IMG/VR virus record: IMGVR_UViG_3300007513_000007
Coordinates: 96,001 to 160,000 of that record
Source: a virus
Length of the DNA: 64,000 bases
Reading direction: 5' to 3' (one strand)
The translations under genes and the position numbers were made by a program. The notes under the pieces are model-generated. The model searched no databases. It saw only the letters and a program-made list of their open reading frames with translations, and was not told where the DNA came from. Shown here piece after piece: positions 12,409 through 50,607 of this stretch; position 1 is the stretch's first letter; each line of letters begins with the position of its first letter.

Positions 12409-12440
12409 GGGGGGTTCCCACTCTCCCCCCTCCCCGTAAA
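12409..12440 (+). promoter_or_regulatory. class I bipartite promoter motif GGGGGTTCC-N16-CGTA
   Basis: GGGGGGTTCC 12409-12418 and CGTAAA 12435-12440; upstream of ATG 12462. Confidence 0.75.
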
Positions 12441-12461: not shown

Positions 12462-12974
12462 ATGCCTACACCGACAACCATTGGACAAGCTACACGGGCC
12501 TACCATGCGGGACAGCCTTTCCTCATCCGTCTGGAGTACCGAGGATCTAACCACAAGAACGAGTGTGGATACTCTTCCAAGTGGTGGACCCTGGAGTATG
12601 ACCCGAAGCGAGGGTCGATACACGAGGTCTACTGCAACTGGGGCGCTACCGGAACAACTGGACGAGCAAACCCGGTCGTGTACGACTTCGAGAAGGCGTC
12701 AAAGAAGTTTGACGAGAAGATGTACAAGAAGGGCTACACCTACTGCTCCTCTACTAATGGCGGTGCCTACAACCTCAAGAGCGCGGCTCCTGTGAAGGAG
12801 AAGCTGGCTTCCATGCCTTTCCCCTTCAACGCCATTCACTCCATCCATTCGCAGGGGGATGGTTATGTCGCGATGGACGAGAACGGTGCCCTTCTGATGT
12901 CTCTGCTGCCAAACGTGGCGCAAGAGCTTATCGGTATGAGCGAAGACCTCCGTACTCGCAGCCCTTGGGCTTGA
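12462..12974 (+). CDS. WGR-like domain protein
   Basis: SSKWWTL...VYCNWGATGTTG...ASKKFDEKMYKKGY matches the WGR pattern with WGA in place of WGR; ATG 12462 with SD GAGGAGG. Confidence 0.75.
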   Translation: MPTPTTIGQATRAYHAGQPFLIRLEYRGSNHKNECGYSSKWWTLEYDPKRGSIHEVYCNWGATGTTGRANPVVYDFEKASKKFDEKMYKKGYTYCSSTNGGAYNLKSAAPVKEKLASMPFPFNAIHSIHSQGDGYVAMDENGALLMSLLPNVAQELIGMSEDLRTRSPWA

Positions 12975-12978
12975 GAGC

Positions 12979-15900
12979 CTACGGGCAGGGATCGTCGCTG
13001 GCAGGATCAATGTTCGGGTAGGGGGCAAGTTCAATGTTCGCGTCTTCAGCACCCTTGGTGTGACCGCTTACCATCGGATACCCCTCCAGCCGATAACGAT
13101 CCGCAGCCGAGTAGCCCTTACCGTACCCGGTGGGGCTAATCTGCCCAGCCAAGAGATAGTCTGTGCCTTCCTCAAGAGGCCCGCGTCCGTAGATTGCTGT
13201 GGTAGCAACCACCATCTGAACCTCATCCCCATAAGAGGTAGTCTCATTAGTGGAGAAGGCTGTTTCCTTGTAGTTCCGAACCAGGAAGGCACGACCAACC
13301 AAAGCAGCACCCTTCAGGACAGGGGCATCTTCCGTGCTCCACCCTCCAAAACTCCACTCCACCGGCCCTCCGGGGAGCTTGTCGAGGTTGTATAGGGAGC
13401 CGCCGCCCCGGTACAAACGGAACTGCCTGACGCCCGCTGGAGCGTCATAAGAGTAGGCGAGGTACTGCTCAACGGCCCCGTCCACCATTCCAATAGAAGC
13501 GCCAGCTTCGCCCAGCAGTCTCCGATACTCCCCCTCTTGTCCGAGAGGTGACGTCACCGTGGGTGCGAAGTCAGAGACCGTTGCTTTGCTGTCGAAAGGC
13601 ATCCCGACACGCAACGGGTCTTCCCCAACAAAGTCCGAGTCTTGGACCAGGATTCCAAGAGGCAGTCGTTCTGTCATTCCCGCTACGTTCACAGGTGTAG
13701 GACTACCGATGCTCGCCGCGCCGTTCATCGGGATGTCCGGTGCCCATAGAGTGAGCCGGTTCAGGTTCGTCAAGTTGTTGGGAACCGAGCCGAAACCACC
13801 TATTCCACCTCTCCAGCCCAGTATTCCGGGAGACGGCAGCCACTTATCAATCCGGCCACCGAGGACGGCGTGTTGCGAACCACCTGCGGTCCTGTCGGTG
13901 TTCAACTCCACCACAATATCCTGGCCCGCCGAACCCCCATCAAGGGACGTAAGCCATACTTTGTTGTCCCCCGTGTAAGTGGGCATCACCCGCAAGCCTC
14001 TAATCAGACGTTGGTTCTGGCTTCCACTGATCATCAGCGTATACAGGGCGAGTGCGGAGGCAGTGGCATCTGCACCAACAGTCAGGACGGCGCTTCCCCA
14101 TTCATAGGTGACTGCCACCTCACCCCTTCGGATGGTGATCGTCTCGTTACCGTCGGCAGTTGAAAGCAAGCTGTTGGTGACGACGCTGTAGCCTACCCCA
14201 CCCTGGTTCGCCCAAGAGGGTTGTCCTTCAGTGAAGGCGCGTGCAGCAACCTGATACTGGGGTGCCGTGGCCGATGCCGGGATCCGGCCTCCCGAATCAT
14301 TCAGGTAGCCGACATCCGTGATGGTTCCCGGAAAAACAGAACCCCCGATTTTTCCGGTTCCCAGCGTAGTGTAAAAGTCACACGCGGCAAGGATTTCCAG
14401 AGAGCGTGGGTTGGGCTTCTCGGGGATCTGGGTGTACCCGTGGGCATTGTCATACTGTTGAATAGCTGCGTGGATTTCGTAGGCATTAGCCACCGAAACC
14501 TGCCCGTACCGGGTCGAGTAGTCAGTAAGTCCAGGACTCCGAACAGAGAGGCCCTTGGTCATGTAGGGGTCGCCCTGGTACACAGACCTTCGATACGCGA
14601 TGTAGGTCTGTGTGTCGTTTGGAGCGGCTGCGGGGATCACCATCTCACAGTCAGTCAAGTTCCCAAGCGCCGTGGGGTCGTTTCCTTCACCGTTGTGGAT
14701 ACGCACAGCAACATAGTTGTTGTCGTCAATGAACCCGGTGCCGAACCCAAAGCAGGTGAACTGAACAAGGAAGTCGAAATCATCCCAGTCTTCACCGTCC
14801 GTGTAGTGGGCAGACCGGCGAATATCGATCACGTCTTCTGGGATCATGTAGGTATGAGAGCCAGAATCACCGGTAACATCTTCACCGCCGCTGCGGTTGA
14901 TGTAGAGGGTCTGCTTGTCTGCACCTGTCCGAAGCAGGTTGGGGATATGGCCTGTCACTGGGGTTACCCGGTCAGCCTCCCATGCCCCAATACCATCCCA
15001 GTCCCGCATGTCGTAAACGCCGTAAACACGGGCGATGCCGAGGTATGGGGGAAGCTCAACACCCCGGAGTCCTCGGGGAGTGTCCGTCGAGATGACGTTT
15101 ACATCCTCTCGGCAGCGACCCTGGTAGCAAGTGCCAGCGCCACCGGAGATGGCTCCGTACTGGCCGTACTCCAAGCCTGTAGTAGCCGGATCTCCAGTCT
15201 GACAGTACATGAATCCAACGCCTGCGACCCCGCCGTTGTCCGTGCCACCGATGACATTGAATACCTGGGAGGAGTCAGAGGTGTTGTCGTGGAAGAGGTG
15301 GTTCACACCTTCCAAAAAGGAACCCGTCCCGGCACCGCTTGTGTCTTGGTAGAAGGGGATGTCCTGACGACCAAAGCGAGGCATGTACTGCGGAGGCAAG
15401 GAATATCCCCAAGTACGGGACCCCTGAAAGAGACCTGCGCCGTCAATGCTTGATCCCGCCCCTGGCCCGAGGGCGTAGGTTGCCGGGTACAAGGCCGTGC
15501 TTGCGCTCAAATCATAGAGGGGGAGGGTCATGCCCTTGTGCTGGAAGGGACGGAAAAGAACCGTCTTCGACCCAGGATCAACGAATAGCTCTGATTCACG
15601 GGACTCTTGTGAGAGGTGGATCCTTCCACCGCCGTAAGATTCCGCGTAGGGGGCGCTCATGCCCTTGCTGTCCAACCGATTCCAGGTCTGGAGCAACTCG
15701 GTCGGGTAGTAGGATTCCGCTACCGAAACGACGCCCGCCTCCGAATAGAACACAGGGTCAATCGAGGTGGGTGCCTGCCGAAGCAGGCTGGATCCAGGCT
15801 GGATCACGGCAAAGGCATCAATGCCCTCGTTTGCAACCCGCGCTGTGCCACCCCGACCGGGGGAGTAGGAAAGCGTGAGGCTAACGAGGAAATCCCCACT

Positions 15901-18456
15901 GATGGGCTGGGCAATGGGGTTGGCCCCCAGATTTGACGAGTTCCAGGGGTTCGCTTGGCCTGCGAAATCCCCGTCAATATCAGTGAATACAATGCAAGCC
16001 GCAGCCTGCCCTGTAACCGCGCCTGTACCGTCCTCCGCGCTTGTCATCCAAGAGCGTGCTTCAGCGGACACGTTGTTTTCCGCAATCATGGCTGGGGGAA
16101 AGGTCCCTTCCACCTTCGCCACCACCATCCGATCACTGGCCGACGCCAAGAAGGGAGTGTATGCCGCAGTCTGGCCCGCCCCGAGCACTCGCCAGCACCC
16201 GTTGTTAGATGCGTTGGAGCACCCGGTCACCACCAAAAATACCTCGGTACTTATTCCCGAACGGTCTTGCCCGTTATTGGTCAGCAACCCAAAGAGGGTG
16301 TTCTTGCCGTGGTAGAGAGGATGGGTGAGGAGGGCGGGGTCGTTACGGAAAGCCCCCGCAGTGTTCTTGGAGTACCAGTCTCCAGCGAGATCGAAATCCA
16401 GTCCGGTAAAGACGATTTCATCGTAGCCTCCGACAGAGGTGCCTGGGGACAAGTCAGCCGTCGTTACCTGAAGCTCCAGGTCAAGGAGTCCCCCCAAGAA
16501 AATAAAAGGGTACTGGAAATCAGTGATGGACAGAGGGTACTGCGGCCCAGGCTTCAGTGTGGCACTCTCCCCCGGAGTAGGGGTGGCCGTCGCCTGCTGG
16601 TCCAGGTACTGCACCGTCACAGGGGCCTGCAACCCTTCCTTGCCCCTCATTGAAGGCGGTCGGCCCTGAAGCAACGCCATCTCCCTGGGGTTCACGAACC
16701 GCACAGCCCGTTCTGTTCCTGCACGCATCGAACCCCGCGCACCACTGGTGCCGTCGTTGCCTCCGATAAACAAGAAGATGGAGTCGCCGTTGCTGATGCC
16801 AGCGGCATCGGTTTGTTGCCCAGAAGCCGAGAAATCAGCGGCAACGTCCCACGCATGAGAGCTTGCCCAAGAGGTAACGGGGGCAGCGCCGCCCTGGTCC
16901 GCAAGGAGAAGCGTCACGTCTGCCTGCATAACTGCTGCGTCCGAGAAGCCGGTCCTGATACCATCAGGCCCGTCCAGAGCAACGGTCTGTGCTGGAACCG
17001 TGGAGGAGCCATCGTTCCAAAGGGTGTCCACCTCAACGACCACGGTGCCTTCGTCATCATTGACTGCACCCTGCTTCCAGGTCGAATGAAGCTCACCCTG
17101 AAGCAGCTTGCTCAAGTTGTGGGCGAGAAGCTGGTCGTAGTCCCATTCCGAAGGGGTAACGCCTCGGCGCATGTCCAGGATGTCGGCATTGATGATCTGA
17201 TCCGAGAAAAGACCATCGGGGCGGGAGTTGAAGAAGGTAAGAGGAGTGCCAGCCAGATGAACGGTGTCCTGCGTTCCCCAGCGACCCCGGCCTTGGTCAG
17301 TCGTTCCCGAAGACCCGTTGTTGATTGTCATGGTGCCGGTTGCTACATCCATCGTCGTGACATGGACGATTTCATCGCCAAGTTTCACGAAGACATGGTC
17401 CCAGGAGAGGTCGGAGTTGTCCCACCCCGAACCGGCCAGCCCTGTAAGAGCCACTGATCCAGTAACCCCAGCGGCGAGGCTGTCTGTAAGGGAGACCTGG
17501 GTAAAGGTCTTCTCTGCTTCAGCAGCCTCCGTCAGCGAAACCGAGAAGGGGTTCCGGTTGAGAGCACCGTTCTGGTTTGCGGCAGTAGACCCATTGAGGG
17601 CAGCCACGAAGTTATCGCTGTTCCTGCGGAATACCGAACAGATGGGGATGGCATAGCTGTACCCATCTACTGTTTTGAGGTCATTGGTCGGGTCGCCGTT
17701 CCCTGCACGCCACAGTCCAGGATCCCCAAGCGCATCACGCATGTTGGTCCAACCCAGCCCCGTCACGGGAGTGGTTGCTGCGCCCTGCGCGAGCACGTTG
17801 GTGTCATCAAGACCGTCAGGCCAAGTAGCAAGATCAATGCTTTGTCCTGCACCGTCACCGCTACCGAAAACCCTGATTCGGTACTGAACCTGGAGCCTTT
17901 CAGTAGTCTCGAACCCAATCGTCGGATCTTCGATGTCATCGGGTTCGTTGGTTCCACCGAACATGGTGTTCCCGTACTTCCAGATGAAGGCTGCGCTGGG
18001 CTTGTTCTCTGTCGAGGGGTTGGGGGCCACCTGGGCCAACCACACCTCAAGAAAAACGAAGTCGATGCGGGTATCGGAGGCCGGGGGCGGCCACAAGTTG
18101 AGCTTGTTGCTGGGGTGAGCATCCGTATTGGAAGTCCCGGTAACGGGGATGACCCATCCGTTCACGTTCGCCCAGAGGATCGGGGACGTTTCGCTGGGTG
18201 CTTCGTTGCCAAACAACAGCCAGTTCGACCAATCAGGGTCAGTGACGTAGTCAGCAGACGCCCTCACAGGGTCCAAAAGCCACCCGGAGTGCATCTTTGC
18301 CCGGTTCTCGGTGGCGGCTCTTTCCCAGTCCACCTGGGCCATCAAGTTGAGTTCTGAATCAAGGGGCGGCTTGCTCGCCTGCCACACAACCACCTGAAAC
18401 TGACGATTAGACGCCGAGAGCGTGCGGCTTACGCCATTTCCGAAGTCCTGTGCCAT
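12979..18456 (-). CDS. large virion structural protein (1825 aa), paralogue of 26464-29853
   Basis: Gly/Thr/Asp-rich beta-type composition; QASKPPLDSELNL, DFVFLEVW and DPGLW...TVDGYSYAIP blocks shared with the paralogue; location in the virion module. Confidence 0.75.
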   Translation of the reverse strand: MAQDFGNGVSRTLSASNRQFQVVVWQASKPPLDSELNLMAQVDWERAATENRAKMHSGWLLDPVRASADYVTDPDWSNWLLFGNEAPSETSPILWANVNGWVIPVTGTSNTDAHPSNKLNLWPPPASDTRIDFVFLEVWLAQVAPNPSTENKPSAAFIWKYGNTMFGGTNEPDDIEDPTIGFETTERLQVQYRIRVFGSGDGAGQSIDLATWPDGLDDTNVLAQGAATTPVTGLGWTNMRDALGDPGLWRAGNGDPTNDLKTVDGYSYAIPICSVFRRNSDNFVAALNGSTAANQNGALNRNPFSVSLTEAAEAEKTFTQVSLTDSLAAGVTGSVALTGLAGSGWDNSDLSWDHVFVKLGDEIVHVTTMDVATGTMTINNGSSGTTDQGRGRWGTQDTVHLAGTPLTFFNSRPDGLFSDQIINADILDMRRGVTPSEWDYDQLLAHNLSKLLQGELHSTWKQGAVNDDEGTVVVEVDTLWNDGSSTVPAQTVALDGPDGIRTGFSDAAVMQADVTLLLADQGGAAPVTSWASSHAWDVAADFSASGQQTDAAGISNGDSIFLFIGGNDGTSGARGSMRAGTERAVRFVNPREMALLQGRPPSMRGKEGLQAPVTVQYLDQQATATPTPGESATLKPGPQYPLSITDFQYPFIFLGGLLDLELQVTTADLSPGTSVGGYDEIVFTGLDFDLAGDWYSKNTAGAFRNDPALLTHPLYHGKNTLFGLLTNNGQDRSGISTEVFLVVTGCSNASNNGCWRVLGAGQTAAYTPFLASASDRMVVAKVEGTFPPAMIAENNVSAEARSWMTSAEDGTGAVTGQAAACIVFTDIDGDFAGQANPWNSSNLGANPIAQPISGDFLVSLTLSYSPGRGGTARVANEGIDAFAVIQPGSSLLRQAPTSIDPVFYSEAGVVSVAESYYPTELLQTWNRLDSKGMSAPYAESYGGGRIHLSQESRESELFVDPGSKTVLFRPFQHKGMTLPLYDLSASTALYPATYALGPGAGSSIDGAGLFQGSRTWGYSLPPQYMPRFGRQDIPFYQDTSGAGTGSFLEGVNHLFHDNTSDSSQVFNVIGGTDNGGVAGVGFMYCQTGDPATTGLEYGQYGAISGGAGTCYQGRCREDVNVISTDTPRGLRGVELPPYLGIARVYGVYDMRDWDGIGAWEADRVTPVTGHIPNLLRTGADKQTLYINRSGGEDVTGDSGSHTYMIPEDVIDIRRSAHYTDGEDWDDFDFLVQFTCFGFGTGFIDDNNYVAVRIHNGEGNDPTALGNLTDCEMVIPAAAPNDTQTYIAYRRSVYQGDPYMTKGLSVRSPGLTDYSTRYGQVSVANAYEIHAAIQQYDNAHGYTQIPEKPNPRSLEILAACDFYTTLGTGKIGGSVFPGTITDVGYLNDSGGRIPASATAPQYQVAARAFTEGQPSWANQGGVGYSVVTNSLLSTADGNETITIRRGEVAVTYEWGSAVLTVGADATASALALYTLMISGSQNQRLIRGLRVMPTYTGDNKVWLTSLDGGSAGQDIVVELNTDRTAGGSQHAVLGGRIDKWLPSPGILGWRGGIGGFGSVPNNLTNLNRLTLWAPDIPMNGAASIGSPTPVNVAGMTERLPLGILVQDSDFVGEDPLRVGMPFDSKATVSDFAPTVTSPLGQEGEYRRLLGEAGASIGMVDGAVEQYLAYSYDAPAGVRQFRLYRGGGSLYNLDKLPGGPVEWSFGGWSTEDAPVLKGAALVGRAFLVRNYKETAFSTNETTSYGDEVQMVVATTAIYGRGPLEEGTDYLLAGQISPTGYGKGYSAADRYRLEGYPMVSGHTKGAEDANIELAPYPNIDPASDDPCP

Positions 18457-18518
18457 GTTCGTACATTCTCCGATGAAAGCAAGGTGGGGTCACGCCCTAC
18501 CCTACCCCCGCGAACGAT

Positions 18519-18533
18519 ATAGAAAGGCGACCG
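18519..18533 (-). promoter_or_regulatory. class II motif CGGT-N7-CTAT
   Basis: Plus strand reads ATAG-AAAGGCG-ACCG; intergenic, 63 nt upstream of 18456. Confidence 0.75.
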
Positions 18534-18537
18534 GGCA

Positions 18538-18711
18538 TCACTGATTAGATAGCGCCCGAAGTTTTACCTTGGCCTTGGCCTTGGCTTTTTCTGAAGCAGA
18601 GGGGTTGCGAAGGATGGCGCTGAAGTATTTTTGCCTTCCCGCCGCCCACTTGGATGACTGCTCCCGGTTCAAATCCTTGGCCCTGATGATATGTCGAGGT
18701 TCGTCACTCAT
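18538..18711 (-). CDS. small basic protein (57 aa; below the ORF-track cutoff)
   Basis: Hand translation gives MSDEPRHIIRAKDLNREQSSKWAAGRQKYFSAILRNPSASEKAKAKAKVKLRALSNQ*; fills the gap 3 nt after the upstream stop. Confidence 0.65.
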   Translation of the reverse strand: MSDEPRHIIRAKDLNREQSSKWAAGRQKYFSAILRNPSASEKAKAKAKVKLRALSNQ

Positions 18712-18714
18712 GGC

Positions 18715-19506
18715 TTACCCGCTTACCCAGGAATCCACGAAGAGGACGCAGAACCCTAAAAGGACATACTCATTTCTGGGGTGGTTGTTGAGAAAGCACA
18801 CCCGAAGGTTTGCTCCCAGGTTTACAAGATCCGTAGGCTCCAAGTATCCGGCCTGATACCAAGTAGCCCCGTCATCGTTACTCAAATAGGCATCCACCAA
18901 GGCTTCAGCAGGAGTAACGTGTCGAAGAAACCGATAACCGGGCTGATTCCCAAGGTTGACGGTGGAGGATCCGTAGCCTCGGGCTACATCCTCCTGTCGC
19001 GCAACTTCAGCTACCGCGTACCACACCATTCCCTCATCAGTTCCTGCGGGGTCGGTTGTCACGGCTGAAATGTCGATGGTGTCTGTGACGAGAAGCCCCT
19101 TACGGCCTCCAGCAGCACTGTTCCTCTTGAGGAGGGTCACACACCCAGGTGCGTTCCCGCTGGGCGCTCCTACGCCTCTCCCCACCATGCAACGAGGGCC
19201 TGATGCCCCAGCCACAGCCGGAACGGGAGCGCCTGGAGCCAAGTCCAAGGCTACGATGTCAGCCGCTTCAATCAAGAAGTTGTAGTGGATGAACTCATAC
19301 ATCGGATACCGAACCAGCAACTCTTGTGCAGAAAGCCCAGAAAGACCGGCCCCTTGCGGGAGGATCTGGGAGCTTTCAGTGATGCTGACGGCGGCACCGT
19401 CTGGAATAGGAAACGGATAATGGCCGCTCATGTTCGTGTACTCCCCTTGGGGAGTAGCACTCGCTCTCACGATCCGATTGGTCGCCAAATCTACAATAGC
19501 CCTCAT
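18715..19506 (-). CDS. hypothetical protein, probably virion-associated
   Basis: 263-aa ORF with ATGA coupling inside the structural operon. Confidence 0.7.
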   Translation of the reverse strand: MRAIVDLATNRIVRASATPQGEYTNMSGHYPFPIPDGAAVSITESSQILPQGAGLSGLSAQELLVRYPMYEFIHYNFLIEAADIVALDLAPGAPVPAVAGASGPRCMVGRGVGAPSGNAPGCVTLLKRNSAAGGRKGLLVTDTIDISAVTTDPAGTDEGMVWYAVAEVARQEDVARGYGSSTVNLGNQPGYRFLRHVTPAEALVDAYLSNDDGATWYQAGYLEPTDLVNLGANLRVCFLNNHPRNEYVLLGFCVLFVDSWVSG

Positions 19507-20471
19507 TGGTTACCCTTCTTGATGAAGACCTTGGGCGACAACTCTTTCGTGCGGAGAGGAGCCTTCAAGTCGGTTGCAATAGTCTTGGTTGCGACAGCGG
19601 TTACCACCCCTTTCGAGTTGAAGGTAAGCCCCTCTACCGTTGTGGGGACAGCTTGTTCCTCCTTGGCCGCCTTGCGGATCTTGTCGGTCGCCGCCTTACG
19701 GTTGTACTTTCCGTTGTTGATGTAGGTGAGGTGGCCGTAAAGCTCGGGCAACGGGATGTTCTGTGCATGGCCGTCTGCTGTGTAAAGCAAGACGTCCATC
19801 TTGGCCTCGTCTGCCGCGCTCGGGTTCTTCAACTGATCCGGGGTGATGAAAGCCCTGGCACCAGAACCCGCCAACCCTCTGTAAGAGGCTGTGAGATTCG
19901 TATAGTTGCTCGCAAGGCGTCCAAGATGCTGGGGAAGCAACGCATCAATGCGGTTTTTGTTGCCCACAATGCAGAACCCAAAAGGGCACTTGAGAAAGAC
20001 GAGTTCCATCAAGAGCTTGTCTTCTCTCTCGTCGCTATCCCATAGAGCATGGCGGCACGAAACCACAAAGTCCCAGTTTTCCTCGGTTCCCTTGAGGAAC
20101 TCCCAGGTGTTGCCGACCTGAAACACGGGGGAGTTGTTGAACCCCATGCCCCCGGCAAGTGCTTGGGCGCTCTGCACCTGGGGAATGGCAATGTCGATGC
20201 CGCAGTAGGTGATGTCTGGACGAACAGCCGCGATTCGCGAGGCCAGCAACCCTGACCCGCACCCAAGCTCCAAAACCCTGGTAGCTCCCGCAGGAATCTG
20301 GGCGGCGATCTCATCGAAGACCGTCGTGATTTCCCCTTCGGACCACCACCCTGAATCAGTTTTCGGCATCCAACCGTTGCGGACCATGTAGTTGGCAGGC
20401 TCTTTGAGGGCAGCCGAGGAAGACGCCGCAAGGGCGTCCACGATTCTTACGCGGCGTGAAAGTTCAGACAT
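19503..20471 (-). CDS. class I SAM-dependent methyltransferase
   Basis: Motif I VLELGCGSGLL, motif II GIDIA, FQVGN, WDFVVS; no DNA-MTase catalytic motif. Confidence 0.82.
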   Translation of the reverse strand: MSELSRRVRIVDALAASSSAALKEPANYMVRNGWMPKTDSGWWSEGEITTVFDEIAAQIPAGATRVLELGCGSGLLASRIAAVRPDITYCGIDIAIPQVQSAQALAGGMGFNNSPVFQVGNTWEFLKGTEENWDFVVSCRHALWDSDEREDKLLMELVFLKCPFGFCIVGNKNRIDALLPQHLGRLASNYTNLTASYRGLAGSGARAFITPDQLKNPSAADEAKMDVLLYTADGHAQNIPLPELYGHLTYINNGKYNRKAATDKIRKAAKEEQAVPTTVEGLTFNSKGVVTAVATKTIATDLKAPLRTKELSPKVFIKKGNQ

Positions 20472-20489
20472 GGGAAACCTCTACTTGCA

Positions 20490-23400: not shown

Positions 23401-26400
23401 GCCGTATCGGCAACCCCAGTAGTTTCTGCCATGCGGTTTACGGTGTTCCCGCTGATGCTCAAAAGCTGCATACTGAGGGCGTCAACTCCGAGGTAGTCCG
23501 TGGATTCTGCGAAAATGCCGAAACCTTCCACCGTGTTGATCTGGTTGCCGGTAACGACGGTGTCTCGGAGCGCGGCCATGTTCGTGGCCGAGTTCGTGGT
23601 CCACGCCCGGAGGTAGATGCCGGTGCTGGCAATCCCACTATGGGCATAAGACATAAGGTGGCTGATGGTGTTGTTTGCCACCCGCACTTCTTGAAGGTTG
23701 TGATTATAGGTGTCGTCCGAGTTTATACATAGGACTTCAATACCCCTGATTCGGCACACGTCACCGGGCACAGCGACCGTCACGGGGTCGTTATCAATGA
23801 TGTTGTCGGAGATGTTGTACCCCCGCCACTCATAGGTCGATGCTCCAGCCCCGGCCCCGGCCTGGGTGATAAGGACCCTGATGCCTACGCTGACACCGGC
23901 AGCCTTCGAGTACATCTTGTTGATCTGGTTGCCTGTGATGTTCAACTGCTGCGAGTTGAGGGCGCAGACCCCGATTGTGCCCTCATCGCTCCCCGTTATC
24001 CCAACCACACCGCTCAAGGACCGTTGAATACCCATCTCACGAATACTGTTGTTCGACACCACCACCTGCTTGGCGTTGAGGATGCCGATGCCCATAGACG
24101 CTTGATCAGTAAGCGGGACGGTGAAGGCAGGTGTCCAGATGGCACCGCCGCAACATTCGATGGTGTTGCCGGTGATGACATAGTTCTCTGGGGATCCATT
24201 GGAGGAGAAGGGCGATGACCCTTCCACCAGGATGCCGTGAGCACAGGAACTGATGTTGTTCCCGGCGATATTCACTTGCTGGGCTACCAGGGAACCACCA
24301 AGGGACTTTCCACAGAGGATTCCTACTGCGGGACTCTCTCCGGGGGCCGCACTGCTGATGAACCCGTTGATGGTGTTGTCGCGGATTCCAACCTGAAGGT
24401 AGTAGCCTCCAACACGGATAGCGGCGTTCATCATGCCCAGGAGTTGGTTTTCATTGATGTCGAATATCCCGGAGCGGTTGTCGCTCCCTGTCTCGACAAG
24501 CACGCCGTATGCCCCGCCTGTGTTACCCGCGAGGGCGAGCGCACCACCCATATGGAAACTGTTCCGAGAGACCTTCAGGCGAGTGTATTCGCCGTAAAGG
24601 ATGACACCGCCCATAGCCGGAACGCCCGTGGCAAGATTCCCGGCGTTGTCGGTGATAGCCACGTCTTTCGCGGCAAGGCTCCCTGTGTGCATCACAAGGA
24701 ATCCAGGGCACTCCTCAATGGTGTTCCCGGATACCACCAGCCCTTCAACACTGCTCCCGAAGTAAATGCCGCCCCCCGAACCTGCCGTCAGAGGAGCGTG
24801 GACAGTCGTATTGGACCAGTTGGAGAAGCTGTTGCCGGTGATATTCACACTCGAAGCAGCGTGCGACCCCGCGAAGGGAACGTAGGCAATAGCCCAGCCG
24901 TCTGCGGGTGAGGCGTGTGCCGTGTCCAGTGTGCCGTGTCGCTGGATGACGTTGCCCGAGATGAAATGCTCCCGCAAGGGAGCCGAGTTCAAGGAGGTGT
25001 CAAAGAGGACTCCTGAACCGGCAGTCGAGTCCGAAATAATGACGTTGTTATTGATATGAACCCTGTCGGATGCGGAAGTTCCTGCCGGGTTCCAGAAACG
25101 GATCCCGTAGTCACCGTTTTCATTGATGTCGATGTGGTTGTCTTGGATCCAGACTTCTTCACAAGCACCAAGGTCGAAGCCTCGGCTTGCCTTGATGTTG
25201 TTGTTCTCGAACCAAAGGTCGGCAGCGACACCGACCCCCGGCGAGAACTGGACACCAGTGGATGCTGCGGCTGTCGGCAGGGCCACCACGGTACAGCCTC
25301 GAACCCGTCCACTGTTTACATCTTGTCCCGCGATCCCGGTGGTGAGGTAGTTGGAAAAAACGCAATCCTCAATCAGAAGGTTGGGGTAGCCGCCGCCGCT
25401 GGAAAGCAGGTTTACGGGAGTCCCCCACCCGTCCGCGCCGTCGGCGGTAAAGCGGACCCGAGAAATCTTGATGTTCTCTTGCTTTGTGGTCGAGTTGCTG
25501 AAGATGGCAGAGTTGTTCGCAGCGTTTGAGGAAAGGATCTCCAGATCCTTGAACTCGACGTTGTCCTGATCCGTGATGTCGAACAACACAGTCGAGGAGG
25601 ATCCCGGCGCATGTCGAATGACGGCCTCTCCGTCCCCCTCGAAGACAACATGGTGGCGAGGGACCGTGAGGGTGTTGTAGATGACGTGGCGACCTCGAAT
25701 GAGGATCCGGGTCTTTGTCTCCTGATCCGCGAGGCCGTTGTTGTGATAATACTCCATCCAGAACAGGGCAGCGTCGAGAGTAACGAAGCACGATTCGGAC
25801 CAGCTTTGGACGTTCTCCCCTTCCCTGCTGGAATACGCCAGCTTCCGGTCCAGGTCAGCCACGAAGAACCGGGCATCCTGGTAGGTATCAACAGTCGCTC
25901 CGGTTGTTGATACCTTGGCAAGCATGACGTGCTCAACACCGCCCGCATCAATAGGGGGTGGTGGAGCCAGCTTCGACACCATCTGCTCGTAAGTCGCGCT
26001 CGAACTGTCACAATCAACGTAGATGTAGCTGATCTGGTTAGCAGGAAGGGTGATGGTCGCGCCGCCCAACTCGATGACGTGGGCGTTGATAAGAACTGTG
26101 GTGGGATCAACCAGCGTGAGAGTGAGATTCGGTCCAGGAAGAGTAGGGTTGTAGGGGGTGCCGCCAGCCAGGGCGAGTTCTTGGAAGAACCCTCCAGCCA
26201 CCATTCCGTTCATGCGGCCTGCACCAGCACCAGCACAGATTTCCTGTAGAGCGCCCTCAACCTCGTCGGAGGTGTAGCAGTGGCCTGCGTCGTCAATACC
26301 GATGGTCACAGCCATATGGGCACGGCTGGGGTCCACGACGTGAACGCGAAGCGGGTCTACATCCCGTTCCGGGTAACGAAGAGAGTTGTCCTCGACGGTC

Positions 26401-26459
26401 CCCTCGGGAGCCAGACCAGCGCCAACGCCGATAGTACCTGGGTCTACTCTACGGGGCAT
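20490..26459 (-). CDS. giant right-handed parallel beta-helix protein (tailspike/depolymerase-like, 1989 aa)
   Basis: Many I/V-x-x-N-x-I Asn-ladder repeats; N-terminal fibre motif HVVDPSRAH...VEGALQEI; RILIRGRH beta-helix cap region. Confidence 0.85.
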   Translation of the reverse strand: MPRRVDPGTIGVGAGLAPEGTVEDNSLRYPERDVDPLRVHVVDPSRAHMAVTIGIDDAGHCYTSDEVEGALQEICAGAGAGRMNGMVAGGFFQELALAGGTPYNPTLPGPNLTLTLVDPTTVLINAHVIELGGATITLPANQISYIYVDCDSSSATYEQMVSKLAPPPPIDAGGVEHVMLAKVSTTGATVDTYQDARFFVADLDRKLAYSSREGENVQSWSESCFVTLDAALFWMEYYHNNGLADQETKTRILIRGRHVIYNTLTVPRHHVVFEGDGEAVIRHAPGSSSTVLFDITDQDNVEFKDLEILSSNAANNSAIFSNSTTKQENIKISRVRFTADGADGWGTPVNLLSSGGGYPNLLIEDCVFSNYLTTGIAGQDVNSGRVRGCTVVALPTAAASTGVQFSPGVGVAADLWFENNNIKASRGFDLGACEEVWIQDNHIDINENGDYGIRFWNPAGTSASDRVHINNNVIISDSTAGSGVLFDTSLNSAPLREHFISGNVIQRHGTLDTAHASPADGWAIAYVPFAGSHAASSVNITGNSFSNWSNTTVHAPLTAGSGGGIYFGSSVEGLVVSGNTIEECPGFLVMHTGSLAAKDVAITDNAGNLATGVPAMGGVILYGEYTRLKVSRNSFHMGGALALAGNTGGAYGVLVETGSDNRSGIFDINENQLLGMMNAAIRVGGYYLQVGIRDNTINGFISSAAPGESPAVGILCGKSLGGSLVAQQVNIAGNNISSCAHGILVEGSSPFSSNGSPENYVITGNTIECCGGAIWTPAFTVPLTDQASMGIGILNAKQVVVSNNSIREMGIQRSLSGVVGITGSDEGTIGVCALNSQQLNITGNQINKMYSKAAGVSVGIRVLITQAGAGAGASTYEWRGYNISDNIIDNDPVTVAVPGDVCRIRGIEVLCINSDDTYNHNLQEVRVANNTISHLMSYAHSGIASTGIYLRAWTTNSATNMAALRDTVVTGNQINTVEGFGIFAESTDYLGVDALSMQLLSISGNTVNRMAETTGVADTAGICVAVAEEANVRGVKIDGNILDKAYNHGIWMHPTGDTTMREVSICNNIIPEVTGALANQGGVGVHLQAAVAGSDRPILTGVQIKDNRIGGDNGDLSQPLWLHTGILLTYPESKMQNIAIAGNDIATNTWGIYWTQQNLGATPATWIALDAQDISIVNNRLWMFRGGNLPYIPSGFWPIQATTRGVAVDRLTIEDNTAFGGRSASPGGGGVGDGGTFSLRHETNTNPISNWSICRNRLISTYNVTDDNGHAIEIEIEHKAAASGGIDIEDIVIENNDCQNGEISFDVDFNGVAGDVDGVSISNNEIRPINDVHAIYCNFTNGVTGNVQVVKNLKVDGNIISSVGDVNPGSLFNVNPFLAITIIGTTSGGQYLTSLQGASISNNNIRGNELVRGCHGIYLDIGGNGVTISDNTLTELGEGDAAAQYFPVGIYLKHTQGNSWKNLNMTGNTITGAGQAGIELWVGSEGGTAGKDQGWNISENTILRCGTRGSGSCSGLKISGSSGTLDLLKNVRVANNLVQVGGNDFDAPGIVLNLDAWSQISQISVVGNQINKVEGQSLGYGIRLLTPDTSTLVNIDGNSVRQNTYEGIRVDAYGAMYNASLCDNNISTNATVKVSISDNGQINFVADALNVLEGCKVDGNLIQGNTVENQSIGGVHIQHDNSSGGAYFTNVSVCTNSIIDTEHGIRLGNRGFLQDYMVDWVGLKVDGNAIHNVQYRGVKGIAWEAGNQIFRNFSVCDNQITHEPTNDFTGVDLVTGGGGDNFLCNFWDVSRNQILFLNPLPDTAQGTVGIYAVCLGQVTQWGFNNNRVRGHGQWGIAVGPGLATTAVREFQFIGNSIESTAGNTATTGSGDISAVGDLVIEGMFGPTAMNVFTIADNSLRNQSKDAGRNGLVLASSLEPGELKFWNITGNSCVNYQATRAVVTDMFNTNFTASVINSNLNTDMAASTDNFDGGLTWSHATNKNIGNVNG

Positions 26460-26463
26460 CTCT

Positions 26464-29400
26464 TTACTCCGAGGCCAAAATGGTCATGCCCTGTGTGCGG
26501 TAAACGCCAACACAGGTGCGGTTGTCTGTTTCGGTGAAACGAATGGTGTTGTTCTCATCAAGCACGGCGTATCGAGTAACAACCAAGAGAAGGACTTCGT
26601 TCTCCCTCCACATGGTGGCTCCTGGAACGCCGTCCAAACCACTCTTCACCCGTGCCAGGAAGGGGAAGCTCACTTTGTGGGTAGAAACCCCGGACAAAGG
26701 CTGGGTCATCGCCGTTGGACGGTAAGAGCCGGTATCCGACACCTTGTAGTGGGACCGGAACTCGGTATCCATGTCAGGCATCCTGAAAGTGAACTCCTGC
26801 GTTCCGTCAACGGCCACCATTTGATGCAGGTTCAAAAGGCCCACGTCGGCATCGAAGTCCATCACTGAAATATCGGCAGTTGCCTGAAGCACCCATTCAC
26901 CGGGGAAGTCCGCTGCGGGGGTGTCGTTGTTTACCGGAATCTGATCCGAGGGGTTCAGGTAAGGGAATGGAACATCCACGGAACCCACTGAAACGGTGTT
27001 GGTCCAAAGGTCACGGGACATCACCAAAGGTTCAACCGTGATGTCTTCAGGGAGGCTTGTGAGGCCCGCCTTACTGCCTGCCGTCTGTTCGGCCATTGTT
27101 CGGTAGTACACGGCAAGCTGGTATCCGTAAGCGGCACCAGAGTTGGGAAGGGGGTCTTGGGGGAACCAGCTAACTTGGCAGAGCGTGGAACCGGCATTGG
27201 TGAACGGAACCGAAGGAGCAGGTCCCGTGGTGTCCAACACGACCCTGCGTAGCGAGGAACCATAAGTAGTGTTGCCGTTGTCCGGGTTGCAAGGGGTCCC
27301 TGCGATCAAATCACTGACGGTTACCTCCGTGTTCTTTGACCCGTACATGCGCCGAGGAACGTAGACTGTAGCGGGGTCAGCAGACACCAAGACATCTGTG
27401 TAGGCGCTCGCTGCTGCTCCGTTATTGCAAGCATATTCCCAGTTCACTTCGCGGTGAGAGGGACGGAACAACGGAGGCAGTTGTTCCTGCCAGTCTGGAG
27501 GCCGTTCCGTGACGGGTCCGGTCTCGATGGCGGGTCCGTATTCGTAGACGCCAACCGAGGTAGGTGCGTCTGGAATCACGGAATCATCGTTGATGTCCAA
27601 CCACGGGGTGTCTGAAGTTCCAACCCCCACAGGATACGCCACCTCAAGCTCTACAAAGATACGTCGAGGACTCCCGTCATCAGTAGCCGAGCCAAGGTTT
27701 GCTACCATCTGTACATGGGCCGGGTCCCGTGCCGGGTTCCCCCCGCCATCAGCAGAAGTAGGGTTGGGGTCCAGGGTGATCTGGATGTAGTCCGTCCCAA
27801 GACCCGTGACCGTCTTGATCTGGACCTCCTGGCTTGTGGCTGCGCTCGATAGTCCGTCATCGTGCCTAATGGTCTTGATTCCGGTGATCATCGTCCCGGA
27901 GGGGAAGAAGTTGGAGACATGGCCTCCTGTACCGCCGTGGTAAGTGGCGGTGGCTTCATCCCAGGTCCCATCCCCAGTGGCGTTCAGGTCACCCAAGTCA
28001 ATATGGATGACATCGTTCTCGCCCCAGCCATTGGGCTGGCTTACTGCGTCTGCTTTGACCACAAAGTGGCCCGGTTGGGTGATCGTCGTGAACGTGGGAG
28101 ATACCGGAATCACGCGGTATTCAACCACCGGCTGGTCCGCGAATCTTCGACGGACATGGTCGAAGTTGGCGATGAAGTTTCCTCGGTTCGTGTCGCCTGA
28201 TTCAGTGGGATGGCCTCCCTCTGCGTCGGAACGACCAACCTCGTTGCAGACCATGTATTTCCAGCTAACGTCGCCGGAACCCCCGCCCATCGCGCCTGAC
28301 TTGTCGCCTGAATCAATCGCCCAAGTGCCCAAGCTGTTGTCGAGGAGCCGGTTCATCTGGCGCTCAAGTTCAGCTTTGAGGTCCAGGCCAGCCGGGTAGG
28401 TGTTCTTCCTCAAATCAAGGAAGTCGGTGTAGACAATGACATCATGAAAGAAGCCATCGGGACGATCTGACTCGTCAGCTTCGATGGTTCCAATCACAGG
28501 GTTTACAAAGACTGGGTGGGTGTACGGTAGAGCGCCGTTGGTGTTGTCCAGAGGATCAAACCCGACCATCCCGAGGGCTGCGCCGTCGTAGGCGTCGTTT
28601 CGCCTGAACACGAATCCAATAGGGATGGCGTATACATAGCCGTCCACAGTGCCCAGATCAGCCGCAGCGGTGCTGCTTCCGTCACCTGCTACCCAAAGGC
28701 CAGGGTCGCGGATGTCGTAGGCCACCGCGCTGCTGTTATCGATCACCGAAGTCATGTCGGCTTTCACGAACGGGTAGAGGGCTACACCTGCTGCTTGTGT
28801 CCCTTGAGCGAGCACGTTGGGGTTAGAGAAACCGTCCTGCTGCGTCTTGAAGTTGATAGCATCCGACACCCCGGAAGCCCTGATGCGGTACTGCCACTGA
28901 ACCCTCGCGGCGGTTTCTGTCCCGATAGTAGGGTCAGCAATCCGGTCAGCGAGGTTCGTGGATACAGGAGATTGGACGTTTCCGTGTCGATACAGGCTGG
29001 CCTGTGTGGGCTTGTTGGGGGTGTCCGCACCTCCCGCAAAAGTGGTCGGGCCTGCAAAGCCGTTTACGGTCATGCAACCGGCATTTGTGAGGACGAGGCT
29101 CAGGGTGACAGCATTTCCGGCTGCTCCTGCCAAAGCATCCACCACTCGAAGGTCTACCTCTGCGGGATTAGAAACATCGACCTGTGCCGTGCAAGTACCC
29201 GCAAAGCCGTTTACCGGGTCCAGGATGGCGTCTCGCATGTTGGCGGCGGCGTCGTTGGCGTTGGCACCCAGATTGAACTCATTGAGTCCTGGAGCGCCTG
29301 CTGTTGCCGTAAGGGCCAAACCGTTGATGACCACCTGATCACCGGCAACCATGTCGGCCCAGGTCACAACCTCAACGGTCGCAGAGGCACGAGGGGAATG

Positions 29401-29853
29401 GGAGACAAGGCATCGCCAGACCTCAAGGAATACAAAATCGGTGCGCTTGATGCTGGGGCCTGTGCCGTCGTAGACGGTGGCCGCGCTCAAATCAATGCGG
29501 TTTTGGTCAGGAAGTGCAGTGTTTGCGTACTCCACCACAATGGGAGCACCGGCTACCAGAGCCGTTCTCTTGCCCATCCAAAGCGAGTTCGCGTGGAAGT
29601 TAGGGTTGGAGGTGGGAAGGAATCCCATGCCTTCCTGGAAGGTAGGCGCGACTGGCCCCCGCAACCACCCAGACGGGACAGTGCGCTGTTGTACCAAAGA
29701 CCGCAGTTGGCGGCCCACTTCTTGGGATAGGTTCAGTTCAGCATCGAGGACAGGCTTACCAGATTGGTAGACCGCCTCATCCCACGAATGCTCCCCAGGA
29801 GGGAGGTATCGTGAAACTGAAGTACCTGTGAAGTATTTATCTCTAATGGCCAT
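26464..29853 (-). CDS. large virion structural protein (1129 aa), paralogue of 12979-18456
   Basis: QSGKPVLDAELNL, DFVFLEVW, DPTIGTET..VQWQYRIR, TVDGYVYAIPIGFVFRRN, RPDGFF. Confidence 0.75.
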   Translation of the reverse strand: MAIRDKYFTGTSVSRYLPPGEHSWDEAVYQSGKPVLDAELNLSQEVGRQLRSLVQQRTVPSGWLRGPVAPTFQEGMGFLPTSNPNFHANSLWMGKRTALVAGAPIVVEYANTALPDQNRIDLSAATVYDGTGPSIKRTDFVFLEVWRCLVSHSPRASATVEVVTWADMVAGDQVVINGLALTATAGAPGLNEFNLGANANDAAANMRDAILDPVNGFAGTCTAQVDVSNPAEVDLRVVDALAGAAGNAVTLSLVLTNAGCMTVNGFAGPTTFAGGADTPNKPTQASLYRHGNVQSPVSTNLADRIADPTIGTETAARVQWQYRIRASGVSDAINFKTQQDGFSNPNVLAQGTQAAGVALYPFVKADMTSVIDNSSAVAYDIRDPGLWVAGDGSSTAAADLGTVDGYVYAIPIGFVFRRNDAYDGAALGMVGFDPLDNTNGALPYTHPVFVNPVIGTIEADESDRPDGFFHDVIVYTDFLDLRKNTYPAGLDLKAELERQMNRLLDNSLGTWAIDSGDKSGAMGGGSGDVSWKYMVCNEVGRSDAEGGHPTESGDTNRGNFIANFDHVRRRFADQPVVEYRVIPVSPTFTTITQPGHFVVKADAVSQPNGWGENDVIHIDLGDLNATGDGTWDEATATYHGGTGGHVSNFFPSGTMITGIKTIRHDDGLSSAATSQEVQIKTVTGLGTDYIQITLDPNPTSADGGGNPARDPAHVQMVANLGSATDDGSPRRIFVELEVAYPVGVGTSDTPWLDINDDSVIPDAPTSVGVYEYGPAIETGPVTERPPDWQEQLPPLFRPSHREVNWEYACNNGAAASAYTDVLVSADPATVYVPRRMYGSKNTEVTVSDLIAGTPCNPDNGNTTYGSSLRRVVLDTTGPAPSVPFTNAGSTLCQVSWFPQDPLPNSGAAYGYQLAVYYRTMAEQTAGSKAGLTSLPEDITVEPLVMSRDLWTNTVSVGSVDVPFPYLNPSDQIPVNNDTPAADFPGEWVLQATADISVMDFDADVGLLNLHQMVAVDGTQEFTFRMPDMDTEFRSHYKVSDTGSYRPTAMTQPLSGVSTHKVSFPFLARVKSGLDGVPGATMWRENEVLLLVVTRYAVLDENNTIRFTETDNRTCVGVYRTQGMTILASE

Positions 29854-29904
29854 CCGGGTTTCCCGCTCCGACGAGGGAGTACCTTACCTACGGCATCGAG
29901 GCAT

Positions 29905-29919
29905 ATAGCCGGGACACCG
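29905..29919 (-). promoter_or_regulatory. class II motif CGGT-N7-CTAT
   Basis: Plus strand reads ATAG-CCGGGAC-ACCG; 52 nt upstream of 29853. Confidence 0.75.
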
Positions 29920-29933
29920 AAACGTATTCCTAA

Positions 29934-30119
29934 TCATTTTCGCACCGCCGACCCCGGCGAGATGCGTGTGTAAGAGGCACTTCTTCGCGTGCCTCGGCTT
30001 CCTGGCGCTGCTTTCGCAGCAAAAGTCTTTGGCAAACTCTTCGAGGATGTCGGCTTTTTCATGGTCGCATGACCAGCCGGTTTCTTCGAGGCTGTTTTCT
30101 TGCGGCACCCGCATCCCAT
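29934..30119 (-). CDS. small highly basic protein (MGCGCRKK..., 61 aa)
   Basis: SD GGAGG and its own class II motif; K/R/S/A-rich with no Asp or Glu. Preferred over the overlapping 29884-30339 frame. Confidence 0.7.
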   Translation of the reverse strand: MGCGCRKKTASKKPAGHATMKKPTSSKSLPKTFAAKAAPGSRGTRRSASYTRISPGSAVRK

Positions 30120-30145
30120 AGAGCCACCTCCGCTTCACAGTCTCG

Positions 30146-30160
30146 ATAGGCATGGAACCG
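30146..30160 (-). promoter_or_regulatory. class II motif CGGT-N7-CTAT
   Basis: Plus strand reads ATAG-GCATGGA-ACCG; 27 nt upstream of 30119. Confidence 0.75.
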
Positions 30161-30165
30161 AAGAT

Positions 30166-30197
30166 GGGGGGTTCCCAGGTTGAGGAGTTATCGTAGA
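30166..30197 (+). promoter_or_regulatory. class I bipartite promoter motif
   Basis: GGGGGGTTCC 30166-30175, N16, CGTAGA 30192-30197. Confidence 0.75.
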
Positions 30198-30227
30198 ACA
30201 CCTGTACAGGTGAAGGCGAAAGAGGTG

Positions 30228-31130
30228 CCCATGACTGCCCCAAAACTGACAGAAGAAGAGGCTCGCGCTGAACTCCTGCGCCCCGCAACGGGGAAGTGTG
30301 TGGTGGTAGTAAAGGGCCGCAAAGTCCCCAGAGACACAACGGGAATAGTTTTTTGGGAGGGGGAAGGAGGTCTACACAACCAAGGTGCTCGCATCGGATT
30401 CAAAGACGCAGCGGGAACTGCCCACTGGACCGCAGCCCACAACGTGGTGGTGGTGGTTCCAGGGTTCGACCCGACCATCGCCTCCAATGACAAGCCCCCT
30501 GCGGGCCACACCTGGAACGAGCTTCTGCAAGCGCACACGCCTGAAGTGCCCTCCAAGGGTCAGCAGGTACGCATCAAAGAAACCTCCGAAGAGGGCGAAG
30601 TTTTTTGGGTGAAGGGTCATCGGCTTGGAGTCCGTGTGGGTTCAGGAAAAGACGATGTTCGTTGGGCTGACGCTTCCGAGGTGGAGGTTGTAAAGGATAA
30701 GCTCCAGATTCTTCAGGACTTCGCTAACGGCATCGGCACTCCCCCTCCCTTGGGCCAAGGGGTGTCTCCTCTGCCGCCCACCGTGGTGCCTGTGATCCCG
30801 CACCAGCCGCAACCCCCTTCTCCCCGCCCTACAGGACCGTCCAACTGGAATGGCGGGTTCGGTGTACCAGAGGTGGAGCCTCCAGAGGGCTGGCCTGCTC
30901 TCCCTTCCCCTTATTCCGAGATCCGTGAAGTACGGGTGTCTATCCGGGAAGACTCGGAAGGTATTTATGAGGGGGTGTATGAGGCATACGACGCCAATGG
31001 AGATTTTCTCCTCCTCATCACGGATGAGATCGCCTCCCTGCTGCAACGTCGGTACTACGTCGCTTGCTACAAAGTAGGCGGGGGAGGGCTGCTCCAGGAG
31101 TACACCACGTCCGTTGCTTCAGGTCGTTAG
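30228..31130 (+). CDS. hypothetical protein: two SH3/KOW-like beta repeats, Pro-rich linker, C-terminal module resembling that of the WGR protein
   Basis: ATG 30228 with SD GAGG; internal repeat G..V.V.....G.VFW....R.G......W....V.VV occurs twice. Confidence 0.75.
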   Translation, partial: PMTAPKLTEEEARAELLRPATGKCVVVVKGRKVPRDTTGIVFWEGEGGLHNQGARIGFKDAAGTAHWTAAHNVVVVVPGFDPTIASNDKPPAGHTWNELLQAHTPEVPSKGQQVRIKETSEEGEVFWVKGHRLGVRVGSGKDDVRWADASEVEVVKDKLQILQDFANGIGTPPPLGQGVSPLPPTVVPVIPHQPQPPSPRPTGPSNWNGGFGVPEVEPPEGWPALPSPYSEIREVRVSIREDSEGIYEGVYEAYDANGDFLLLITDEIASLLQRRYYVACYKVGGGGLLQEYTTSVASGR

Positions 31131-49628: not shown

Positions 49629-49659
49629 GGGGGTTCCGGTATACCCTCCGAACCGTATA
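49629..49659 (+). promoter_or_regulatory. class I bipartite promoter motif
   Basis: GGGGGTTCC 49629-49637, N16, CGTATA 49654-49659. Confidence 0.75.
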
Positions 49660-49677
49660 GAGAGCATAGGAGGAGTC

Positions 49678-49902
49678 ATGGCTTCGCAGGCATGTAAATC
49701 TTGGAAGGATGGGACGAAGCGTTTTATCCCTCGCTCTCGCGGTCGAGTAGGCCATCAGCGTCAGTTCGGTACTCATATGTCTCGGGCGGCTATGGCTGCC
49801 GAAGCGCGTACCGCAGAACGCTCCGCTCGTCGGGCGGGTAAGGTCGCCATCGAGGAAGGGCTGGCAGATTGGGAAGATGAAGAAGCCACACCTAACTATT
49901 GA
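49678..49902 (+). CDS. small hypothetical protein (74 aa)
   Basis: Strong SD AGGAGGAG; first gene after the class I motif; basic N-terminus, acidic C-terminus. Confidence 0.7.
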   Translation: MASQACKSWKDGTKRFIPRSRGRVGHQRQFGTHMSRAAMAAEARTAERSARRAGKVAIEEGLADWEDEEATPNY

Positions 49903-50314
49903 ACTGGTCCCCCGAGGACAATGGGGGGCTAACCTCCGGTCAGAGCTTCCGAAGGCTGAATGGGACCGTCTACGCAAGGCGACGTACAAGGCAGCCCACT
50001 ACCGCTGCGAGATATGCGGAGGTAAGGGTCCCAAGTGGCCCGTCGAGTGCCACGAACGGTGGGACTACAACGAGGAAACCAAAGTCCAGAAGCTGGTTGG
50101 CTTGATTGCCTTGTGTCCCAAGTGCCATGAGGTAAAGCATATCGGAAGAGCGGGGGCTGTCGGAAGAGCACCACAGGCCGTTGAACACCTCATGGAGATC
50201 AACGGCTGGAGTGCTGACGACGCGATGGCCTATGTAGACGGTTGCTTTGAAGTGTGGGCACGACGGTCCCAAGAAGACTGGAGCCTTGATTTATCATGGT
50301 TGGAGGGTAGCTAA
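49877..50314 (+). CDS. HNH endonuclease family protein
   Basis: WDRLRK..YRCEICGG..ECHE..LIALCPKCHEVKH (zinc-binding HNH pattern). Confidence 0.85.
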   Translation: MKKPHLTIELVPRGQWGANLRSELPKAEWDRLRKATYKAAHYRCEICGGKGPKWPVECHERWDYNEETKVQKLVGLIALCPKCHEVKHIGRAGAVGRAPQAVEHLMEINGWSADDAMAYVDGCFEVWARRSQEDWSLDLSWLEGS

Positions 50315-50384
50315 ACCACTTTTCCGGGTAGTATGAAAGTGCCCATAAGGGCGACACACACACTACACAGAAAAGGAGGAAGCT

Positions 50385-50591
50385 ATGCCTTCCCAAACAC
50401 CAGACGGAACCGCTATTTCAGCCAACCCCTACCAGATGCGGTTCGACCTCCTCCATCTTGCCAAGGACATCCTTGAGCAGAACGCCCATATGGCCCGAGA
50501 GGACAAGTCCAAGGAGCGCAAGACCTACTACACCCTCGATGAAGTCATCGAGACTGCACAAACTCTGAACAAGTTCGTGTCCAACAAGTAG
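50385..50591 (+). CDS. small phage hypothetical protein
   Basis: SD AGGAGGA; NPYQMRFDLLHLAKDIL...TLDEVIETAQTLNKFVSNK resembles a small protein pattern I recall from T4-like and large phages (not searched). Confidence 0.75.
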   Translation: MPSQTPDGTAISANPYQMRFDLLHLAKDILEQNAHMAREDKSKERKTYYTLDEVIETAQTLNKFVSNK

Positions 50592-50607
50592 GGCGCAGGG
50601 GGCGGGA

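Follow-up and report, generated by a model that had tools for sequence, protein, structure and literature searches.

Do two small, solitary genes of a huge phage, whose products begin with different domains, end in the same C-terminal module, and what might such a module do? The question is raised by a 64,000-nucleotide stretch of DNA (the window), which covers bases 96001–160000 of a 180.6-kb IMG/VR contig (IMGVR_UViG_3300007513_000007) from an uncultivated huge phage, estimated to be ~40% complete. The minus strand holds nearly all long open reading frames (ORFs) of the window, and the giant ones encode proteins of 1825, 1989, 1129, 1940 and 1450 amino acids (aa). Two genes each stand alone on the plus strand within this minus-strand block, as an earlier reading made from the letters of the DNA (the sequence-only reading) had described. 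Gene A (12462–12974, +) encodes P0001, a 170-aa protein with a WGR domain, a short linker and a C-terminal module, as defined by its ORF, translation, homologs and an alignment of its family (A6). Gene B (30231–31130, +) encodes P0002, a 299-aa protein with two KOW/SH3-like repeats, a proline-rich linker, a module and a 24-aa tail, defined in the same way with alignment A7. Sequence comparisons confirm that the modules of the two genes form one homologous domain.

The module copy in gene A occupies residues 114–160 (12801–12941, +), as delimited by alignment A3, AlphaFold2 and hhalign comparison with the modules of KOW-type proteins. The copy in gene B occupies residues 220–275 (30888–31055, +; alignments A2 and A3). 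The two segments that had first drawn attention are correctly placed, with MPFPF starting at 12813 in gene A and LPSPY at about 30900 in gene B. Direct BLASTP of P0001 against P0002 does not align the modules and returns no match, because gene B of the window has a 9-residue insertion in the first (beta1-beta2) hairpin. The homolog P0007, which is 47% identical to P0002, does not have this insertion, and its C-terminus aligns without gaps to the C-terminus of gene A over 40 residues. The Smith-Waterman score of P0001 against P0007 is 61, as compared with 29.4 ± 4.7 for shuffled sequences, and none of 2000 shuffles scored as high.

Comparison of profiles extends this result from single sequences to the two families. 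A profile of the modules of WGR-type proteins matches a profile of the modules of KOW-type proteins with an hhalign probability of 98.6% (E 5.3e-16). On a stricter subset, from which the two most cross-similar sequences had been taken out, the probability is 97.1% (E 6.9e-11). A negative control of equal size, in which the module was compared with the KOW-like repeats, gave a probability below 1%. The profile-profile score, on which the sequence-only reading had staked its claim of a C-terminal module common to both genes, is thus significant, and together with the Smith-Waterman comparison it bears the claim out. In a six-frame search of the 180-kb genome, the hidden Markov model (HMM) of the module scores 72 bits on the frame of gene B. 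P0017, a protein with an unrelated N-terminal domain, matches the gene A module in this genome at 49% identity.

The module is ~45 residues long, with the consensus [LM]PxP[FY]xxI[RH]x[IVL]-x4-6-G-[YW]xA[YF]DxxGx[FL][LIV][ML]xL-xxExAxxL. AlphaFold2 folds it from a 12-sequence alignment with a mean predicted local distance difference test score (pLDDT) of 94.1 and a predicted template modelling score (pTM) of 0.72. The predicted elements are an N-terminal PxP[FY] segment, three strands (residues 14–18, 21–25 and 31–35) that form an antiparallel beta-meander, and a helix at residues 37–46. A model of the whole of P0001 from its single sequence has a pLDDT of 45 and is usable for the secondary structure of the module only. 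Positions P8, I12, G21, A24, D26, G29, A40 and L43 are invariant or nearly so, and judging from the pattern of conservation and the predicted secondary structure, most of them would be core or turn residues. All 21 members checked have an acidic module, with a net charge of −1 to −7 and an isoelectric point (pI) of 4.1–5.0, and the WGR halves, at pI 8.4–9.6, are basic. This speaks against a module that itself binds nucleic acid.

Searches of family and structure catalogues returned no clear relative. Pfam, PHROGs, NCBIfam and PADLOC have no family over the module region in the members scanned, at E values up to 1. A search of PDB sequences with the module profile gave chance hairpin matches only (E 1 or worse). 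The best values from fold searches with the predicted module were E 0.3 (chemokines) for Foldseek in PDB, Z 3.8 for VIA-align over 48,161 PDB chains, and E 0.097 in BFVD. The ESM Atlas returned propeller-type leads for the module at scores of at most 0.88, which serve as leads only. It is therefore well supported that the module belongs to no catalogued family among those searched and represents a new family of small domains in huge marine phages.

Two known folds resemble the module in shape. The chemokine (IL-8-like) fold has its elements in the same order: an extended N-terminal segment comes first, three strands then form an antiparallel beta-meander, and a C-terminal helix packs against this sheet. 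It provides the best rows of the Foldseek search (E 0.3–1, query TM-score (TMq) 0.5–0.6) and of the VIA-align search (Z 3.1–3.5, root-mean-square deviation 2.4–2.6 over 40–41 residues). Chemokines are eukaryotic secreted proteins whose small fold serves protein-protein contacts and dimerisation. However, there is no sequence relationship between chemokines and the module, these scores are typical of common small arrangements, and the module is an intracellular phage domain, so that the likeness is an analogy of shape only. The CC or CXC disulfides of chemokines are also absent from the module, which has no conserved cysteine. With Foldseek E values of at least 0.3 and VIA-align Z scores of at most 3.5 besides, we did not class the module as a member of the chemokine fold.

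Chromo and chromoshadow domains (HP1, CHD1) likewise combine a three-stranded sheet with a C-terminal helix in ~45–60 residues, and they act as terminal protein-binding or dimerisation modules on modular proteins. Their VIA-align matches to the module are weak (9baq_B, Z 3.0; 2h1e_B, Z 2.5) and lie far below a convincing level. Unlike these domains, the module has no Pfam match, and we identified neither an aromatic-cage nor a PxVxL-groove signature in it. Its predicted shape is the common arrangement of an N-terminal loop, a beta-meander and a C-terminal helix, and the scores do not support kinship with chemokines or chromodomains.

We identified 32 module-bearing proteins in two database searches taken together, all of them metagenomic and in phage-like contexts. 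A four-sequence module profile (A2) gave 17 matches at E <1e-3 among 1.84 billion representative proteins, and a 12-sequence profile (A3) gave 26 proteins from a 5.8-billion-cluster database. A variable linker precedes the module, and at most 24 residues come after it in 29 of these 32 proteins. It follows three unrelated N-terminal architectures and also occurs in one stand-alone form, in agreement with the earlier proposal of a modular family with different N-terminal domains.

In the first architecture a WGR domain precedes the module (P0001 and its homologs P0003, P0004 (79% identical), P0012, P0028 and P0025). In the second, the gene B type, two KOW/SH3-like repeats are followed by a proline-rich linker and the module (alignment A7; homologs P0005, P0007, P0026 and P0029, and long forms that include P0016 and P0018). 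Some of these proteins add an N-terminal ‘RVMSD’ domain and a charged helical region, which others, including gene B of the window, do not have. In the third, an unrelated N-terminal domain with the pattern ‘HEAY..LGLRPLDEFL...GATTW’ precedes the module (P0014, P0017 and P0022). The N-terminal domains are mutually unrelated, with hhalign probabilities of 0–10%, and those between the WGR domain and the KOW-like repeats are 0.0–0.1%.

The stand-alone form is P0021 (L011:91-631), a 94-aa protein with the module at its start. Its gene overlaps by 8 nucleotides (nt) an upstream 87-aa gene for a small barrel-like protein that ends in a linker rich in proline and glutamate. This arrangement may be a true split or a frameshifted fusion, and it would make a fourth head for the module.

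Our six-frame HMM search of the 180-kb genome identified two family members only, genes A and B, and revealed no further module copy in this genome or in any fetched locus. A tblastn search with P0001 and P0002 gave no matches in 50,697 GenBank phage records, and a search of viral contigs for loci related to P0001, P0002 and P0036 found none. A second IMG/VR contig (G001, 100.9 kb) contains exactly two module copies, of which one belongs to the gene A type and the other to the gene B type, at a distance of 17.9 kb. Three related contigs (L003, L004 and L009) show synteny of the gene positions. In related contigs gene A sits after a 268/273-aa gene and a block of SNF2-helicase and DnaB genes, and gene B is placed between giant genes. 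The gene A/gene B pair is conserved in this clade. On one 67-kb related contig, a 511-aa gene (L009:7050-8585, −) adjoins the gene B ortholog and has a weak WGR match and no module.

The same promoter-like element precedes both genes. An exact 12-mer, GGGGGGTTCCCA, lies 41 nt upstream of the start codon of gene A and 53 nt upstream of that of gene B. This 12-mer makes up the upstream half of the bipartite motif GGGGTT[CT]C-N12-17-CGTA[AGT][AGT], which is matched strictly at 12411–12440 (+; GGGGTTCC-N-CGTAAA) for gene A and at 30168–30197 (+; GGGGTTCC-N-CGTAGA) for gene B. The motif is kept upstream of gene A orthologs in L003, L004, L005 and L012 and upstream of gene B orthologs in L002, L013, L009 and L008. 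It occurs in 30 strict copies in the 180-kb contig, versus 0.1 in shuffled sequence, and most copies precede genes in the contig regions upstream of the window. Genes A and B are therefore part of a large promoter class rather than a private regulon. The earlier suggestion of co-regulation holds as far as a common, conserved motif goes and does not extend to a regulon of their own. The window contains four copies only, all on the plus strand, at 12411 (gene A), 30168 (gene B), 31871 and 49630. Under this promoter class, genes A and B run against the direction of the giant genes that surround them, and their expression therefore probably follows another schedule.

Taken together, we favor a reading in which the module is a protein-protein contact domain. 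Gene A has a basic WGR head and gene B two KOW/SH3-like barrels, binding-type domains that a flexible linker joins in each gene to one and the same small, autonomous domain. This domain would either associate with itself or dock on one shared partner, and a common contact domain of this kind would give different binding heads one destination or one valency. Both genes would be transcribed from the abundant GGGGTTCC...CGTA promoter class, counter to the giant genes. A protein-contact role appears most likely because conservation is of the core and turn type, acidity is uniform, the module is terminal and a linker tethers it. A catalytic or nucleic-acid-binding role is unlikely. We give the whole explanation, with the shared module on different heads, the protein-contact role and the separate schedule of the promoter class, a probability of roughly 55%.

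Several points weigh against this explanation. First, the assignment of conserved residues to the core draws on sequence pattern and secondary structure and not on inspected coordinates. Second, the protein-contact role is deduced from the features just listed, and the timing of expression is read only from the promoter class. Third, the tree of modules, set against architecture, has little resolution, and a history of shuffling cannot be read from it. Finally, the two modules within this genome are 26% identical, which is not above the values between genomes. There is therefore no sign, in this identity or in the tree, of co-evolution with a lineage-specific partner. The divergent WGR-type protein P0025 (L005:816-959) has a module nearer to that of a KOW-type protein (P0027/P0019, L010:112-255), at 48% identity, than to those of other WGR-type proteins, at 33–36%. 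The likeness of P0025 to P0027 hints at module exchange or at lineage-specific co-evolution, and the tree flags their join as a possible long-branch artefact.

The protein-contact reading can be made more specific in two ways, neither of which we would bet on. The module may be a purely self-associating domain that forms dimers or oligomers and so lends its heads avidity for their own separate targets, with no common machine. This would accord with a small terminal beta3-alpha topology that recalls oligomerising chemokines and chromoshadow domains (at the weak levels of TMq 0.5–0.6 and Z 2.5–3.8), with conservation that falls mostly at core-type positions and forms no obvious surface motif, and with modules that are no more alike within a genome than between genomes. 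Nothing, however, separates self-association from docking on a shared partner, and it falls within the protein-contact reading rather than contradicting it. We consider it doubtful as the whole answer. We hold an equally tentative view of the idea that the module serves a phage-specific adaptor system as its docking handle. Such a system would plug several heads (WGR, KOW/SH3-like and the third domain) by way of one acidic 45-residue domain into one phage or host machine, and would let a clade of huge marine phages swap heads and keep one receptor. The proposal that such adaptors serve one machine goes back to the sequence-only reading and fits the anatomy of genes A and B.

A less probable alternative to the protein-contact reading is that the module is an address domain, which would direct the protein that carries it to some part of the phage or its compartments, for example the inside of the capsid, the virion or a compartment for replication. 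In its favor, the module is terminal and linker-tethered on unrelated bodies, and both genes lie inside a block of giant, presumably structural, genes. Phage address tags such as the T4 capsid-targeting sequence are likewise single short transferable terminal units on otherwise unrelated phage proteins. These tags are short peptides, however, mostly N-terminal and present on many proteins, whereas the module is a folded, C-terminal domain of 45 residues. Its two copies in a 180-kb genome segment fall far below what would be expected of a cargo-loading code, and genes A and B lie on the opposite strand from the giant genes and under a promoter class of non-structural regions.

Least probable by far is that the similarity reflects chance or convergence on a common beta-hairpin motif (YxAxDxNGxF) as in beta-propeller blades: the want of a BLASTP alignment between the two window proteins, the 18–20-residue matches of the central hairpin alone to the repeat proteins P0013, P0015, P0020 and P0024 and to the propeller Ycf48, and the propeller families that lead the ESM Atlas search at scores below 0.9 would suit it, but it is already contradicted by the Smith-Waterman, hhalign and AlphaFold2 results, in which the match spans the full 42–47-residue unit with its PxP[FY]xxI strap and helix, profile-profile comparison yields E values of 5e-16 and 7e-11 and its negative controls are clean, C-terminal placement is alike in 29 of 32 proteins and the joint alignment folds at a pLDDT of 94. 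The hairpin pattern G-Y-x-A-x-D-x-x-G-x-F also matches repeat and beta-propeller proteins, including PDB 8am5_S (Ycf48), and we treat these matches as false positives at the level of the motif. The long repeat proteins P0013, P0015, P0020 and P0024 were dropped from the family on the ground that their matches cover only an 18–25-residue hairpin.

These analyses define an uncatalogued mini-domain, confidently predicted to fold, in the ‘dark matter’ of huge marine phages. The module is a transferable unit, with three unrelated N-terminal partners and a stand-alone form, and the gene pair that carries it is conserved between genomes. If it acts as a docking or oligomerisation handle, it would open a route to the role of the WGR and KOW-like heads in infection and would itself be a compact natural tag. 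The advance is a well-supported domain family with a deduced function and not a new mechanism, as shared terminal modules on modular phage proteins are already known.

The head of gene A has a WGR domain core at residues 37–90 (12570–12731, +; Pfam accession PF05406). P0001 passes the Pfam threshold narrowly (22.3 bits versus a cut-off of 22, E 1.5e-4), and two of its homologs lie under it, P0028 at 21.1 bits and P0012 at 15.2 bits. The A6 family profile matches residues 12–85 of PDB chain 2ra8_A (E 2.5e-4), which we take to be the WGR part of that chain. The W-G-R signature region reads NWG[AK]xGTxGR in this family (A6), with the tryptophan and glycine kept and an alanine or lysine, not an arginine, after them. 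Known WGR proteins (PF05406), including the WGR domain of PARP, MolR and Bacteroides fragilis 2ra8, share the N-terminal half of gene A only. The module has not been reported on them, and our searches found it only in this group of metagenomic phages.

The head of gene B contains a first KOW/SH3-like repeat at residues 19–76 (30285–30458, +), with the pattern GKxVVVVKGRKVPxxTxGxVFW and a weak match to phrog_37790, and a second at residues 105–154 (30543–30692, +). Comparison of repeat 1 with repeat 2 by hhalign shows that the internal repeat is real (probability 95%, E 3.9e-8). The ‘KOW/SH3-like’ label denotes a resemblance in sequence pattern and not family membership. The L24 model TIGR01080 reaches only 17.8 bits on P0016, as compared with a cut-off of 47.65, and a KOW7_SPT5 match has an E of 0.24. 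For the N-terminus of gene B, the ESM Atlas gave DUF4314 and MotB at scores of at most 0.86, as leads only.

The KOW-like unit GKxVxVVKGRKVPKGTxGxVFW is itself mobile (P0008, P0009 and P0010, and long forms such as P0016 and P0018). Many metagenomic phage proteins carry it behind an N-terminal ‘RVMSD’ domain (phrog_30881-like) and have no C-terminal module; gene B of the window is without that N-terminal domain. The proline-rich linker of gene B (residues 155–219; 30693–30887, +) varies widely in length and sequence among homologs in alignment A7. P0006, a metagenomic variant of gene B, is 99% identical over its first two thirds and then shifts frame within the proline-rich linker. It finishes in the +1 frame and loses the module (window positions 30850–31077), a loss that could be natural or could stem from an error in the assembly.

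A Pfam scan of neighboring genes (268, 209, 1825, 1129, 212, 263 and 145 aa) gave no matches. Each copy of the promoter motif in the window heads a plus-strand island that runs opposite to the block of giant genes. The third such island (49630–51030, +) is headed by the same motif and has no module copy. It opens with a 145-aa cysteine- and histidine-rich ORF (49877–50314) that has no Pfam match and contains CxxC and CPKCH motifs, followed by ORFs of 68 and 140 aa.

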